A program made the position numbers and the translations under genes. A DNA stretch of 55,142 nt. Origin: a virus. The notes beneath the pieces are model-generated. The model worked only from the letters and a program-made list of their open reading frames with translations. It had not been told where the DNA came from and ran no database searches. Shown here piece by piece: positions 5,567 through 38,691 of this stretch (positions within the stretch are counted from its first letter, which is position 1; each line of letters starts with the position of its first letter). The DNA lies in the IMG/VR virus record IMGVR_UViG_3300045988_062587; one strand, written 5' to 3'.

Positions 5567-6131
5567 CGTCGTCACCAGCCAGCTTTTCAGCCCACGCCTT
5601 GCGTTCACGGACACGGGCCTCATACTTTGCCGGGTCGTAACGGAACATGGCGATTTCCTCGGCTATCTGATTCACCTCGCCACGCATATACTCTGCCACC
5701 TCTGCCGGGTCAGACAGAGCAGCCGCATTGATGGCAACACGGCTGGGCAGCGCCATCAGCGCACCCCGGACGGTGTAGATAAGCTCAGAGGTCATAGCGG
5801 CCACATCCTCACTGCGGTGCATCTGCCCGGACAGCTCTTTTGCCTCAGCTTGAGCGATTTTCGCTTTGCTGGCTTTGAGCGTAGCTTCTGCTTTCTGCTT
5901 GATGTGGTCCAGCTTTTTGGCCTCTGCCGCTTCCTCTTTGGTCAGCCCGCCACGGGCAGTGCTGGCATTGTAGGCCTGCACTGCGTCACCAAGGACAAAT
6001 TTTCCTCGACTGACGGTGGTGAGCACCCCATCCTGTGTGAGCTGCTGCACCCTGCGGTTCGTGATGCCCAGCACGGCGGCCAGTTGGGTGGTGGTCACAG
6101 TCATGTCAGCAACTCTTTCTTTTGTCGGCAT
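5559..6131 (-). CDS. terS: Terminase small subunit, Nu1-like (N-terminal wHTH)
   Basis: N-terminal HTH (TTTQLAAVLGITNRRVQQLTQDGVL), a coiled-coil middle region, a position immediately upstream of terL, and a strong RBS (AAGGAGGTGG). Confidence 0.65.
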   Translation of the reverse strand: MPTKERVADMTVTTTQLAAVLGITNRRVQQLTQDGVLTTVSRGKFVLGDAVQAYNASTARGGLTKEEAAEAKKLDHIKQKAEATLKASKAKIAQAEAKELSGQMHRSEDVAAMTSELIYTVRGALMALPSRVAINAAALSDPAEVAEYMRGEVNQIAEEIAMFRYDPAKYEARVRERKAWAEKLAGDDDE

Positions 6132-34378: not shown

Positions 34379-34717
34379 TCAGGTATTCTCAGTGTCATCC
34401 GTATCGGAGACATTCAACTCCAGAAGGGTCAGGCGATAAGCCTGATCCACGTTCATCTCGTCGGCATCCTCGATGGCACTTTTGGATTCCATGATCCAGC
34501 TGCCGATGTCGGTCTGCTCCAGCATGACCGTTTCCAGCTCATCGCCCATCTGATCGCGGTCGAACAGCTGGTACGGCGTCCCGGCATAAGAAATGCCCGA
34601 AGCATCAGGCTCCGGGCAGAGGATATAACAGCCGTTGTCGGCTTTTTTGATGTAGGTCACGTCCTCGGTCAAGGCAAGGACGGTGCCATCACTGGCTTTG
34701 ATGATTTTGTTGAACAA
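34379..34717 (-). CDS. Hypothetical acidic protein (112 aa)
   Basis: ORF whose start overlaps the RT 3' end. Confidence 0.55.
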   Translation of the reverse strand: MFNKIIKASDGTVLALTEDVTYIKKADNGCYILCPEPDASGISYAGTPYQLFDRDQMGDELETVMLEQTDIGSWIMESKSAIEDADEMNVDQAYRLTLLELNVSDTDDTENT

Positions 34718-35889
34718 GGCACTCTACCTCCAAAAATTGCATAGCAAAGCCGCCGCAGACGCAGCAGCCGCCCATGGTCATCAAAATTTTTATAGTAGGC
34801 TTCTTGGCAGTTCATATACTGCGCTACCTCCTGCAGGGTACGTTTCCCGGCCAGCCATTCACGGTGGAACAGCTTCAGTTTCCTCCGTGCGCGTATCACG
34901 CCGTCACGACTACCATTGACTTTGATTTTCCCGGTCTCGGTCAAGGTAAAACGAGCCTTGCACCAGCGGAAAGGCTTTGTCAGAGGGATGATCTTGCATT
35001 TCTTCTTGTTGACCGGGATGCCGCGGATTTCAAACTGGCGCACGATAGCGCGGCCCAGCTTTTTCAGATCTTCGATATCCGGGAGAATGATGCAGTAATC
35101 ATCCATGTAGTGTCCGGCGCTATGCGTGGACATCTGGCATTTGATCCAGTTGTCCACAGCACTGGGCATTGCCGCCATTTCTTGTTGGCTCGGCTCAACG
35201 CCCAGCGGCATCCCACGGCCCGGAAATTCGCCGGGAGCAGTATCAATAATGGTATCTGCTATCCGCCGAAAATCAGGGTTCAGGATATACCGCTGGTGCC
35301 GCTGATAGATGATAGAATGGGGTGCATAAGGAAAGAACTTCTTCAGGTCGAGCAGCAACACCCCGCCCGCACGGCCATACTTGCGGTAATGCCGTGCCAG
35401 CTGCTGTTTGATGCGCTTGATCTGCCAGTGCAGTCCCTTACCAATCCGGCTTGCACCGTTGTCATAGATCATGCTGGGGTCGTAAAGCGGCTCCAACACT
35501 TCCTTGCTGATGACCTTGTGGATTTGTCGGTCTGTAATATGAGGAGCGTCAATCCCACGAATCTTGCCGCGTTCGCAGACCGTGAAATGAACGTATTTCT
35601 TAGGCCGCCACCTTTTGGCCAAAATAAGCCGCCGCTGCTTCGCTGTGTGGGAAAACAGATGCCGCTCAAAGTTCTGCGTGCTCTGCTTCCAGCGTACACC
35701 GTTGCAGCATTTCCGGCCATATTTGAACATCGTGTGGTAACTGAATACTTCTCCCAACGAACCGAGGGCGGCACAACGAGCTTCCTGTCTGGCTCGGCGT
35801 GCTGCCCGGCGGCGCTGGTATCGTGCTTCATGGCGCTCCTGACTTGTCATAAAAGTATTCGCTCCTCGTACAGATGAATTGTAGGGCAT
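34669..35889 (-). CDS. DGR reverse transcriptase
   Basis: Catalytic HYMDDYCII, the DGR-typical GxxxSQ motif (GVEPSQ), and LLLDLKKFF. The more likely start is the ATG at 35850 (MTSQERHEA, GAGGAG upstream). Confidence 0.9.
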   Translation of the reverse strand: MPYNSSVRGANTFMTSQERHEARYQRRRAARRARQEARCAALGSLGEVFSYHTMFKYGRKCCNGVRWKQSTQNFERHLFSHTAKQRRLILAKRWRPKKYVHFTVCERGKIRGIDAPHITDRQIHKVISKEVLEPLYDPSMIYDNGASRIGKGLHWQIKRIKQQLARHYRKYGRAGGVLLLDLKKFFPYAPHSIIYQRHQRYILNPDFRRIADTIIDTAPGEFPGRGMPLGVEPSQQEMAAMPSAVDNWIKCQMSTHSAGHYMDDYCIILPDIEDLKKLGRAIVRQFEIRGIPVNKKKCKIIPLTKPFRWCKARFTLTETGKIKVNGSRDGVIRARRKLKLFHREWLAGKRTLQEVAQYMNCQEAYYKNFDDHGRLLRLRRLCYAIFGGRVPCSTKSSKPVMAPSLP

Positions 35890-36071
35890 CGTCTAATCTG
35901 CTTTATGCCGGCACATGAAACGCGGTAAGATGCATCCCGCGCCATGCAAGAAGCGTCCGTGTCAGCATATCGAAAAGCAGTTTTAGAGGTTTGACCCTCA
36001 GGGAAGTACCTCTCCTTTTGCTATGGTCGTCTTTCACCTATGGCTACTCCATGTGACCAAGCATTGCAAAA

Positions 36072-36202
36072 TCCGGGCACAACACCATACGCATTGTTAG
36101 CGTTGTTATAGTCCAACGACCCCGACGACGAAACCGCGCAGAAGTTGTTGTTGTTGTTGATGTTGTTGTAGTTCGGCGACCGCAGCCACCAGACCGCCGC
36201 CG
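36072..36202 (-). repeat. DGR template repeat (TR), Asn-codon (AAC/AAT) rich
   Basis: Homologous to 37111-37232. The track ORF at 36021..36227 is this repeat, not a gene. Confidence 0.85.
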
Positions 36203-36234: not shown

Positions 36235-36693
36235 TCAGGCTTTCCGATTGACCGTTCCGATCATGCCTTGCAGCAGGTCGTTTTCCTTGTCAATCAGCTC
36301 ACCCAACTTTTGAGCCATTTTGTCCAGTCTTTCAGTTGCTTTCTTCGCATCGACACTTTTCCCTGAGGGAGTTGTGAAACATCCCTGCGGGTTCTGGGTC
36401 ATGATGAGATAGCAGTGAGTCAACCGAACATCCAGCGCCATCAGGGATGCCCGCGCTTCCAGAAGATGTGCTTTACGAAGCTGGCGCCGCTGATCGTCGG
36501 AGGGATAGATGCTGTTTGCCTTTTCGGCGTGGTCTATCACCTCGCCTGCCAGCTTTGCAACCGGTTCTGCAATCAATCTGGAATACCTTGCGGAAATGCG
36601 GGTCAGGAAGTTTATCGTTTCAATGTAAATCGCATTGGCGACATTCACATACTCCGCCTTGCTTTCTGTGCGCTTGGATTTCAAAACTGACAT
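36235..36693 (-). CDS. avd: Accessory variability determinant (Avd-like helical bundle protein)
   Basis: 152-aa basic helical protein immediately upstream of TR, with a GAAGGAGA RBS inside the end of the RHH gene. Confidence 0.6.
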   Translation of the reverse strand: MSVLKSKRTESKAEYVNVANAIYIETINFLTRISARYSRLIAEPVAKLAGEVIDHAEKANSIYPSDDQRRQLRKAHLLEARASLMALDVRLTHCYLIMTQNPQGCFTTPSGKSVDAKKATERLDKMAQKLGELIDKENDLLQGMIGTVNRKA

Positions 36694-36699
36694 GATACT

Positions 36700-36885
36700 T
36701 TAGTCTCCTTCGGGGTCATCGAGATCGATTTCCCCTTGCTCTCGCTCAACTTCTTCCAAATGCTTGAGCAGCACATACTCTATGTAGTTCGTGATGGACC
36801 GATGCTCTTTTGTTGCTAGGACACCGATCTTATCAAAAACTTCATCGGACAGGCGCAGTGTAAAGACGCGCTTGTTAGTTGCCAT
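36700..36885 (-). CDS. Ribbon-helix-helix (CopG/Arc-like) protein, 61 aa
   Basis: MATNKRVFTLRLSDEVFDKIGVLATKEHRSITNYIEYVLLKHL has the beta-strand-helix-helix pattern. AGGAGG RBS. The stop lies 6 nt before the avd ATG. Confidence 0.65.
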   Translation of the reverse strand: MATNKRVFTLRLSDEVFDKIGVLATKEHRSITNYIEYVLLKHLEEVEREQGEIDLDDPEGD

Positions 36886-37083
36886 ACAATACCTCCTAAC
36901 AAACAGGTTTTGAAAGTATTGTATAGCGTTTTTCGTGCCGTGTATGCACTCATAAGACAGTTGAGTGATAGCACTTTCAGTATCTTTTTTCAAAAAATCG
37001 CGCGGGGCGCTGACGCGCCCTTTGAATTTTTTTAGGAAAGTTTGCTGTTTTCCGCCCACTTCCGTGGGCTTGAGTAAGTCGAG

Positions 37084-37100
37084 AATCCCTGCGGGGGATT
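37084..37100 (-). promoter_or_regulatory. Hairpin immediately 3' of VR (DGR target-recognition-type stem-loop)
   Basis: Minus strand AATCCC-ccgca-GGGATT. It overlaps the stop codon of the target gene and is absent downstream of TR. Confidence 0.45.
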
Positions 37101-38691
37101 AGACAACAAAGCCGGGCACAACACCATACGCATAGTAAGCGTAGTAACAGTCCAACGACCCCGACGACGAAACCGCGCAGAAGTAGTTGGTGGCGAAGTA
37201 GTACGGCGACCGCAGCCACCAGACCGCCGCCGTTCCGGTGGCGGAATGTTTATTGGCAACTTTGCTGTTACCCGCTTTGAAATAATCGTACTGTGCCTGA
37301 TAGTTCGGCTCCGCATCATTGCAATACTGGTGCGTTGCAAAGACCTCATACTCGGACAGCAGGAACAGATAATCCGTGGTAGAGGACACGTTGCTGGCGG
37401 TATTGCCGCCGCCCGCATTATCCGTATACTTCGTGCAGGACTTCATCGCCGCCCGCAGGTCAGAGGGAAGTGCAGCCAGCAACGTGTTGGCGGTCGGACT
37501 GGTGGGAGAACTTGCGCTACCCAGCACCTTGCTCCGCATCTGACTGCTTCCCCAGCCACCAGAGTTCGTGTTGCTGGTGTTCATCGTGAACGCACCAGAC
37601 GTAGAAGTCGTGCTGCCGTAGCTGCTATCCACCAGACCAACAAACTTGCCGCTGATCTTACCCAACAGGAAGTGGATACGGTTGCTGCCCTCCTTGCCGG
37701 AATTGTGGTTGAAACCGATGATAAAGGCATCGACTTTCAAGCTGGAGATTGTAGTTGCACCCACCTTGCCATTGATGGTTACACTCTTAGTGTCGCCCAC
37801 AGACCACCAGTTCTTCGCCTTGCCCTCATCGGACACCTTGCGGATAACTTTCCACTCGTTCTTCTCCAGAACGGCGTTGATGTAGGTCAGCGTCAAAGCA
37901 TAATTCTTGTACTCGGTGGCGGCAACCGTGGCGTTGGTCGAGTCGGTGCCCAGCGTTGCAGTGATGCTCCATGTACCCAGCTCAGGCGGATAGAAAACGA
38001 CAGTGCCGTTTCCGTCGTTGCCGCTCACAATGGCCGTGAGGGTGGTATCTCCGCAGGAGGCCGTGACCTCGCTGCCCACAGGTGCGGTCAGCGTCAGAAC
38101 GCAAAAATGTACAGTGGTCGTGTAGCTACCACCGTTCTGCGTCACCTCGATTTCTGCGGTGTCACTGATGGCATCGCCCCTGACCGCCTGAACAGTATAG
38201 GTACCCGCCCGCTTGATACGCACCGATGCCACGCCGTCGCTGTCGGCCGTCGCCTTATAGGCTTTGCCCGTACCAGTCATGGTAGCGGTGACGGTCGAGC
38301 CGGTGGCCGCCGTTACCGCCAGCGTGGCAGCGAAGTACGGCAGATTGAGCGTATACTGACCGCCCACGACATCGACAGTGACGGTGTCGTCCGTGGTCAG
38401 ACCGGCCAGTGATGCCGTGACCGTCCACTCGCCCAGCCGGGGCAGCGTGGTGGTGAAGCTGCCACCAGTCGCCGTGCCGGTGATAGTGCTCTGGCCGTCA
38501 GTGATGGTCAAGGCGCTGCCCGCAGTCGTAGTGACAGTGAGCTTCGGCAATGTATTGCCCAGCACCTTGTCCAGCGCCTCCTGAATGTTGGATGCAGAAA
38601 TGCCCAGAGTGTCCTCGTAGGCGATTTCTTTTGCAGTCCCGCCGCCGCTCTGTGCACCGCCAGAACCTGCATTAAAAGGGCCCCATGCCAT
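37099..38691 (-). CDS. Tail fibre / receptor-binding protein, DGR target (Ig-like repeats + C-type-lectin-fold C-terminus)
   Basis: Thr/Val-rich repeated beta modules. C-terminal AVWWLRSP....FCAVSSSGSLD.....YGVVPGF carries the VR. Confidence 0.8.
   Translation of the reverse strand: MAWGPFNAGSGGAQSGGGTAKEIAYEDTLGISASNIQEALDKVLGNTLPKLTVTTTAGSALTITDGQSTITGTATGGSFTTTLPRLGEWTVTASLAGLTTDDTVTVDVVGGQYTLNLPYFAATLAVTAATGSTVTATMTGTGKAYKATADSDGVASVRIKRAGTYTVQAVRGDAISDTAEIEVTQNGGSYTTTVHFCVLTLTAPVGSEVTASCGDTTLTAIVSGNDGNGTVVFYPPELGTWSITATLGTDSTNATVAATEYKNYALTLTYINAVLEKNEWKVIRKVSDEGKAKNWWSVGDTKSVTINGKVGATTISSLKVDAFIIGFNHNSGKEGSNRIHFLLGKISGKFVGLVDSSYGSTTSTSGAFTMNTSNTNSGGWGSSQMRSKVLGSASSPTSPTANTLLAALPSDLRAAMKSCTKYTDNAGGGNTASNVSSTTDYLFLLSEYEVFATHQYCNDAEPNYQAQYDYFKAGNSKVANKHSATGTAAVWWLRSPYYFATNYFCAVSSSGSLDCYYAYYAYGVVPGFVV
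37111..37232 (-). repeat. DGR variable repeat (VR)
   Basis: Last ~40 codons of the target gene. It has 12-13 substitutions relative to TR, all at TR adenines. Confidence 0.85.

Follow-up and report, generated by a model that had tools for sequence, protein, structure and literature searches.

In-frame length differences between template and variable repeats in a Faecalibacterium phage DGR and its relatives, with a probable origin in homing

A DGR carried by a Faecalibacterium phage has a variable repeat (VR) that is 9 nt shorter than its template repeat (TR), and this difference is real and biologically meaningful. The phage is represented by a stretch of viral DNA of 55,142 nt (IMG/VR record IMGVR_UViG_3300045988_062587), hereafter the window, to which the coordinates refer. 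Comparison with relatives suggests that the shortfall of the VR probably arose in TR-to-VR retrohoming, by slipping of register in steps of 3 nt. Length change in DGRs and a slippage model to explain it have already been published (Wu et al. 2018, PMC5758913) and in this respect novelty is low. What is new is the lineage-level picture, in which a phage DGR is affected in about half of the sampled genomes, the TR is stable and the loops of sister lineages are fixed.

The window belongs to a phage related to FP_Taranis, Roos and Pioen and is close to FP_Taranis. Its DGR region shares 96-97% identity with these three phages, and the remaining genome is ~86% identical to Taranis. The ORF map of the minus strand contains one complete DGR cassette, the features of which are as follows:

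34669..35889, minus strand: DGR reverse transcriptase (RT) gene, 406 aa, from RVT_1, PHROG and motifs
36069..36202, minus strand: TR, 134 nt, non-coding, with the accessory ORF on one side and the RT gene on the other
36144..36173, minus strand: TR tract, 10 NNC codons, where the extra 9 nt lie, from reading and alignment
36235..36693, minus strand: accessory ORF, 152 aa, where DGRs carry Avd, from the ORF list
36700..37059, minus strand: small Arc/RHH-like ORF within the cassette, between the target gene and the accessory gene, from RHH_7 and PHROG
37054-37069, minus strand: hairpin GCCCAC-GGAA-GTGGGC, 3′ of the VR, from DNA folding
37084-37100, minus strand: hairpin AATCCC-CCGCA-GGGATT, just 3′ of the VR, from DNA folding
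37099..38691, minus strand: DGR target gene, 530 aa, with a C-terminal DUF6273 (Pfam E 2.5e-14)
37108..37232, minus strand: VR, 125 nt, at the 3′ end of the target gene
37183..37203, minus strand: VR tract of 7 codons, from reading and alignment

This cassette is an ordinary, active phage DGR, and its anatomy can be read directly from the window. The VR ends the target ORF at its 3′ side and the non-coding TR adjoins the RT gene, which is the layout of a DGR. The RT matches Pfam RVT_1 (E 6e-15) and the PHROG reverse transcriptase family (E 8e-88), and its translation contains LGVEPSQ and YMDD. It thus has the RVT_1 core, YxDD and the [I/L]GxxxSQ motif, the last of which is diagnostic of DGR-type RTs. 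The sole solved relative of the RT is the 328-aa RT of the 8ub7 series (E 1.7e-8), which we take to be the BPP-1 bRT. The Taranis orthologue of the target gene carries the RefSeq annotation 'DGR target'. The accessory ORF gave a single match, to phrog_30516 of unknown function, with no detectable Avd homology and zero matches in Pfam, NCBIfam and PDB sequences; in Taranis, likewise, no Avd homologue was found (Cornuault et al. 2018, PMC5883640). The Arc/RHH-like ORF has a weak match to RHH_7 and a match to the PHROG Arc-like repressor (E 2.5e-6), and its counterpart is labelled 'Arc-like repressor' in the FP_Taranis record, where it is annotated at 62 aa as against 119 aa for the longest ORF in the window. 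A regulator inside a DGR cassette could affect the timing of homing activity.

Homology between the two repeats ends at CCCGG[A/C]TTT, with A in the TR and C in the VR, fixed in all relatives, and this point may be an IMH/IMH* boundary. The two 6-bp hairpins that lie at 37054..37100 fold no better than shuffled sequence (z = -1.05) and are suggestive only. A second, shorter TR was sought within the window and none was found; there is one TR and one VR only.

Local alignment and direct reading agree that the 134-nt TR and the 125-nt VR differ in length by a single 9-nt block, within the tract that follows ...CGG TCG CCG. In the TR this tract reads AAC TAC AAC AAC ATC AAC AAC AAC AAC AAC (NYNNINNNNN) and in the VR TAC TAC TTC GCC ACC AAC TAC (YYFATNY). 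The invariant flanks enclose 29 nt in the TR (36145-36173), or 30 nt and 10 codons if C36144 is included, and 20 nt in the VR, or 21 nt and 7 codons; both the lengths and the encoded tracts are as given in an initial annotation of the window. A single 9-nt gap places 13/13 mismatches on TR adenines (hypergeometric P = 3e-11, from 25 A among 125 aligned positions), CCCGG A/C TTT being counted among the 13, and this adenine specificity is a direct observation. There are 9 equivalent placements of the gap (tract offsets 5-13), every one of which covers the T of ATC, and a gap placed anywhere else forces a non-A change. That annotation had already seen that only A-to-N differences remain once the gap is set, and the placement it gave is a valid one. 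The codons it named are displaced, as plus-strand GATGTTGTT at 36159-36167 corresponds to sense AAC AAC ATC (codons 3-5), whereas sense ATC AAC AAC would be 36153-36161; both placements give an equal result. The window therefore bears the marks of a non-canonical indel, in that the difference is a multiple of 3 nt, lies at AAC repeats and leaves only A-to-N changes elsewhere.

Relatives of this DGR were gathered by a scan for the A-free invariant of the repeat across 47 IMG/VR contigs, 106 human-gut metagenome contigs, one complete F. prausnitzii chromosome and three cultured-phage records. We removed 25 parsed copies of the repeat, most of them chimera-like, whose tracts were atypical or whose TR/VR flanks did not match. 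The final set comprised 100 clean TRs, 58 unique VR haplotypes and 38 unique TR+VR pairs, with the caveat that many metagenome contigs are of low coverage and single cases of length change could be artefacts. The 60 clean VRs resolved into 58 unique haplotypes, which indicates an active DGR. The exact VR of the window was sought in independent contigs and was absent among 162 loci, as expected because the site is hypervariable; its haplotype is also unlike the VRs of Taranis, Roos and Pioen.

TR/VR chimeras occur in contigs L031, L044, L072, L079, L086, L090, L117, L120, L125, L127, L142, L144 and L157. In some of these the upstream flank is that of the VR, whereas both the body and the downstream flank are those of the TR, an arrangement in which the accessory and Arc-like genes would be deleted, whilst L044 has a TR bearing the first block of the VR and L157 has unmutated TR sequence within VR flanks. 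Such contigs could reflect assembly collapse across a repeat of 125-134 nt, true recombination between TR and VR, or non-mutagenic homing. Moreover, at least 13 contigs break off ~1 kb away from the TR, which puts their ends at or within the VR (L008, L009, L010, L014, L015, L020, L026, L027, L029, L030, L039, L043 and L046), which fits heterogeneity of the VR within samples breaking the assemblies.

Length differences of the kind seen in the window recur among these relatives, and their recurrence and direction were observed directly. The tract lengths were distributed as follows:

TR tracts (n = 100): 8 codons in 2, 9 in 5, 10 in 81, 11 in 11 and 12 in 1
VR tracts (n = 58): 6 codons in 4, 7 in 7, 8 in 8, 9 in 6, 10 in 25, 11 in 4, 12 in 1, 16 in 1 and out of frame in 2

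Non-modal lengths are thus found in 33/58 VRs vs 19/100 TRs (Fisher P 1.6e-6; Levene P 9e-10). Length is steadier in the TR even though its repeat is the more perfect of the two. In the comparison of TR and VR in related phages, a check that the initial annotation had proposed, 18 of the 38 unique pairs are equal in length and 20, or about half, are unequal, 19 of the latter by a multiple of 3. By size, the VR differs by -12 nt in six pairs, by -9, -6 and -3 nt in four pairs each, and by +3 and -4 nt in one pair each, giving 18 in-frame deletions of 1-4 codons, one insertion of a single codon and one loss of 4 nt. In all 18 pairs of equal length there are zero non-A changes in the tract and xTC is kept at codon 5. 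For 18/20 unequal pairs a single contiguous gap is enough to remove every non-A change, and in 9 of those 18 the gap must remove the ATC codon, as it must in the window.

Differences in length are also found between closely related genomes. Taranis and contigs L078, L082 and L089 share an identical 850-nt spacer between VR and TR and are equal in TR length, and their VR tracts have 10, 9, 10 and 6 codons, respectively. The nearest relative of the window, L016, differs at 2/849 positions and has a VR of 10 codons. Target proteins of the Taranis lineage in the protein clusters of an independent database have loops of 5-11 residues, which differ from 10 residues in 14/22.

Some of the individual repeats merit description. 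The 16-codon VR tract of L146 holds an internal TCG CCG, a copy of the upstream flank of the tract, and looks like a partial tandem duplication of the start of the VR, by a template switch or an assembly loop. The out-of-frame tracts of L093 and L098 are 29 and 26 nt long, and out-of-frame VRs include those of proteins P0007 and P0008, whose target C-termini are frameshifted; these may be either slips by a non-multiple of 3 that selection purges or errors of low-coverage assemblies. Almost all variation among the TR alleles is in the number of AAC copies or at adenines (AAC/TAC/TGC as the last codon; ATC vs AAC), as exemplified by L060, L081, L113, L123, L009, L075 and L115, and four TRs are without any ATC codon. 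The changes at adenines might be a sign that the TR is itself occasionally a target of homing, which has been reported in a synthetic system.

Two controls show that change of length is confined to the long AAC tract, which is again a matter of direct observation. Firstly, the repeat contains a second A-rich block, TAT AAC AAC GCT AAC AAT, that has no long AAC run. Its length is 20 nt in all parsed repeats, TR and VR alike, the 58 unique VR haplotypes among them, although it is mutagenised just as heavily. Secondly, sister DGRs (Dulem virus 34, MT835543 and L159) have TR tracts of 7 codons with AAC runs of ≤3, and the loop of the target protein is exactly 7 residues in 66/67 sister-lineage proteins. 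By alignment, the TR of the Taranis lineage has an additional 9 nt relative to the sister templates, to which the VR of the window aligns without a gap, 7 codons being typical of the family. In L159 the TR contains AAC x3-AAT-AAC and length is unchanged in its 6 sampled proteins; therefore, repeat content alone may not suffice for length change. The L159 lengths were taken from protein clusters, the viral-contig scan having yielded only 3 truncated loci. Because VR lengths vary more than those of the TR, differ despite identical flanks and are constant in both controls, the changes point to TR-to-VR transfer and not to ordinary drift at the DNA level.

We consider that the tract itself probably allows this transfer to slip. 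During homing, the RT would copy TR RNA into cDNA, misincorporating at random opposite adenines, and this cDNA would replace the VR at the 3′ end of the DUF6273 gene, a gene of receptor-binding type. With a tract made up entirely of NNC codons and its adenines miscopied, the dependable cDNA-template pairs would be the G:C pairs at every third base, and moving the primer terminus by 3 nt or a multiple thereof would give a register nearly as stable as the correct one, even across ATC or TAC. In the window the RT, or a later step of cDNA-target pairing, would have jumped 9 nt including the ATC codon, the outcome being an in-frame loop with 7 residues in place of 10. Since G:C pairs are kept under 3-nt shifts, slipping of this kind would account for the in-frame changes, for the deletions that span ATC and for the confinement to a long periodic tract. 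We infer that the fault would lie at reverse transcription and not at integration or repair, and that G:C pairing would be what sets the register. Slippage of the RT on AAC and homing that tolerates in-frame indels had been listed in the initial annotation as separate possibilities; they are in effect one idea, which the comparative data favour.

Slipping alone leaves two features of the data unexplained. Deletions outnumber insertions by 18:1, an excess that could stem from selection rather than mechanism. Moreover, the sizes of the deletions are flat, with 4, 4, 4 and 6 cases for 1-4 codons, whereas simple slippage by one unit predicts a fall-off; selection toward an ancestral loop of ~7 residues, or long jumps, may contribute. 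Within the transfer itself, the change may alternatively come from a junction formed inside the tract at integration, or from heteroduplex repair that preserves the length of the recipient.

Selection would also play a part if a full 10-codon VR had been written and had later lost 9 nt at the DNA level, by replication slippage or recombination, with the short loop then being retained. Selection for short loops is plausible, as the shorter loops, at 6-8 residues, lie close to the 7 typical of the family, and the copy number of the TR itself drifts by DNA-level slippage (8-12 codons). However, a mutagenised VR tract is no longer a repeat and should slip less, yet it varies in length about three times more often than the TR, and it does so between genomes whose flanks are identical. 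We therefore regard deletion after homing as improbable.

Still less probable, in our view, is that a single deletion founded a class of short VRs which later homing diversified without resetting their length, either because a 9-nt loop-out between cDNA and target was repaired toward the recipient or because the 5′ junction fell inside the tract. Consistent with this idea, nine different 7-codon VR tracts (7 DNA haplotypes and 2 protein clusters) vary only at the NN of NNC and must have been diversified at that length, without any 7-codon TR having been seen. However, lengths of 6, 7, 8, 9, 11 and 12 codons are all present, and near-identical genomes fall into different classes, which shows that these are not stably inherited. 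Moreover, formation of an indel during homing would still be required.

A 7-codon VR might also be the relic of a 7-codon template, had the TR expanded after the last homing event. The TR did expand at some point, as is evident from the 7-codon TRs of the sister DGRs and the gap-free alignment of the window VR against them. However, all 100 clean TRs have 8-12 codons, and the expansion is therefore old and predates the radiation of Taranis, Roos and Pioen. The 10-codon TR allele of the window occurs in 16/100 clean TRs, its own included, with many independent contigs 100% identical, and VRs differ among genomes that share identical flanks. The 7-codon haplotypes are all distinct from each other and differ at A-derived positions, and were thus written by adenine mutagenesis at that length and are not relics. 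On these grounds we reject the expansion after last homing that the initial annotation had allowed for, its probability being very small.

Lastly, an error of assembly or consensus in the low-complexity GTT repeat or in a heterogeneous VR, which had been named as the finding that would overturn the observation, is barely credible: although VR heterogeneity does disturb assemblies (25 odd repeat copies, most chimera-like, and many contigs that stop at the VR), the repeat is just 30 nt and identical in 15 other clean TRs, the VR tract is non-repetitive, in frame and different only at A positions, and like differences are present in the cultured isolate Pioen (TR 134 nt, VR 137 nt), in the complete chromosome of F. 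prausnitzii strain UT1 (L051; 9 codons in the TR vs 8 in the VR) and in a 216-kb contig at 37x coverage (L089; 10 vs 6 codons).

Register slipping during homing would place the change of length in a predicted loop of the target protein. We modelled target residues 262-530 (window 37102-37908, minus strand) with AlphaFold from 92 sequences (pLDDT 91.4, pTM 0.90). The VR tract corresponds to model residues 236-242, of which DSSP assigns 236-241 to the loop of a beta-hairpin whose strands are 230-235 and 242-246, residue 242 beginning the second strand. The predicted position of this loop at the tip of a hairpin is consistent with tolerance of 5-12 residues. The DUF6273 model has one significant structural match, to the IgA peptidase of Thomasclavelia ramosa (9qa6; E 4e-8, TMq 0.48). 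A C-type lectin domain, the usual fold of DGR targets, was considered for the VR domain and is unsupported, as Foldseek matches to CD23 and the mannose receptor had E > 1.

A further reading, which we put forward tentatively and hold to be doubtful, is that the DGR of the Taranis lineage evolved its expanded, NNC-periodic (AAC)n tract as a selected, built-in diversifier of length, and not as a tolerated error. If so, each homing event would sample 12-14 randomised tract adenines together with a loop of ~5-12 residues, in likeness to the junctional length diversity of antibody CDR3.

Among known systems, the closest precedent is the survey of Wu et al. 2018 (PMC5758913), in which TR and VR differ in length in 25/372 DGRs (7%), 14 of those 25 by multiples of 3, and 74% of indels adjoin AAC. 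The authors proposed template slippage in reverse transcription, perhaps as an extra mutagenic capability, and their model is cited in a 2026 study (PMC12875486). The window resembles their cases in that all other differences are A-to-N, and the rationale for slippage, with 2/3 of incorporations mismatched, is similar. That homing with in-frame indels would enlarge the repertoire, as the initial annotation proposed, is not a new idea. Unlike in our lineage, the in-frame indels of that survey (14/372 DGRs) are nearly all Lineage-4-related (cyanobacterial, non-phage) and are single snapshots, whereas here a DGR of Firmicutes phages is affected in about half of the sampled genomes, with VRs of 6-12 codons beside a stable TR of 10 codons.

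The DGRs of Taranis, Roos and Pioen have themselves been published (Cornuault et al. 2018, PMC5883640; PMC11792537) and are like that of the window in gene order, the 96-97% identity extending across the RT, the TR, the accessory ORF, the Arc-like ORF and the 3′ portion of the DUF6273 target. Variation of the VR at read level was reported for Roos and Pioen (PMC5883640; PMC11792537), and the unequal repeats of Pioen appear without comment in Table S3 of PMC11792537. Length variation is discussed in neither paper and the word 'indel' is absent from the main text of the 2024 paper. With the DGR of BPP-1 (bRT/Avd/TR/VR of mtd) the window shares an RT-mediated, adenine-specific and one-way transfer from TR to VR, into the 3′ end of a receptor-binding gene. 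However, homing in BPP-1 is described as length-preserving, with indels negligible in E. coli reconstitutions, and the window differs from it in the absence of detectable Avd homology in the 152-aa ORF and in a target fold that is DUF6273 and not Mtd.

DGRs are usually described, and engineered, as length-preserving machines of pure substitution. The present lineage is a natural exception, since in about half of the genomes sampled the VR is unlike its template in length, which is not so in sisters with shorter AAC runs. Lysogens that can be cultured and induced are available (HTF-238 for Pioen, FM8 for Roos), which makes the slippage hypothesis already published directly testable. For directed evolution with DGRs these data suggest a design rule, namely that long NNC-periodic tracts would yield libraries of loop length and interrupted tracts would avoid them. 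They also carry a warning, in that DGR detectors and assemblers which assume gap-free TR/VR pairs will mis-handle such loci.

Outside the Taranis lineage, the VR of L159, a myovirus-like contig (4888-5011 vs 5714-5837), is 99% identical to its TR over 124 nt with all adenines unmutated, which may mean that this DGR has just been reset or is inactive, or that the assembly has collapsed here. For other DUF6273 targets (P0084, P0063 and P0048) the contigs contain no RT or TR within 3.5 kb and hence give no information on a template. In L163 and L165, from other phage lineages, paired DUF6273 genes (~282 and ~233 aa) lie beside portal and head genes and again lack an RT within 3.5 kb, an arrangement that recalls the two-target, distant-template DGRs described for Lelie and CP11.
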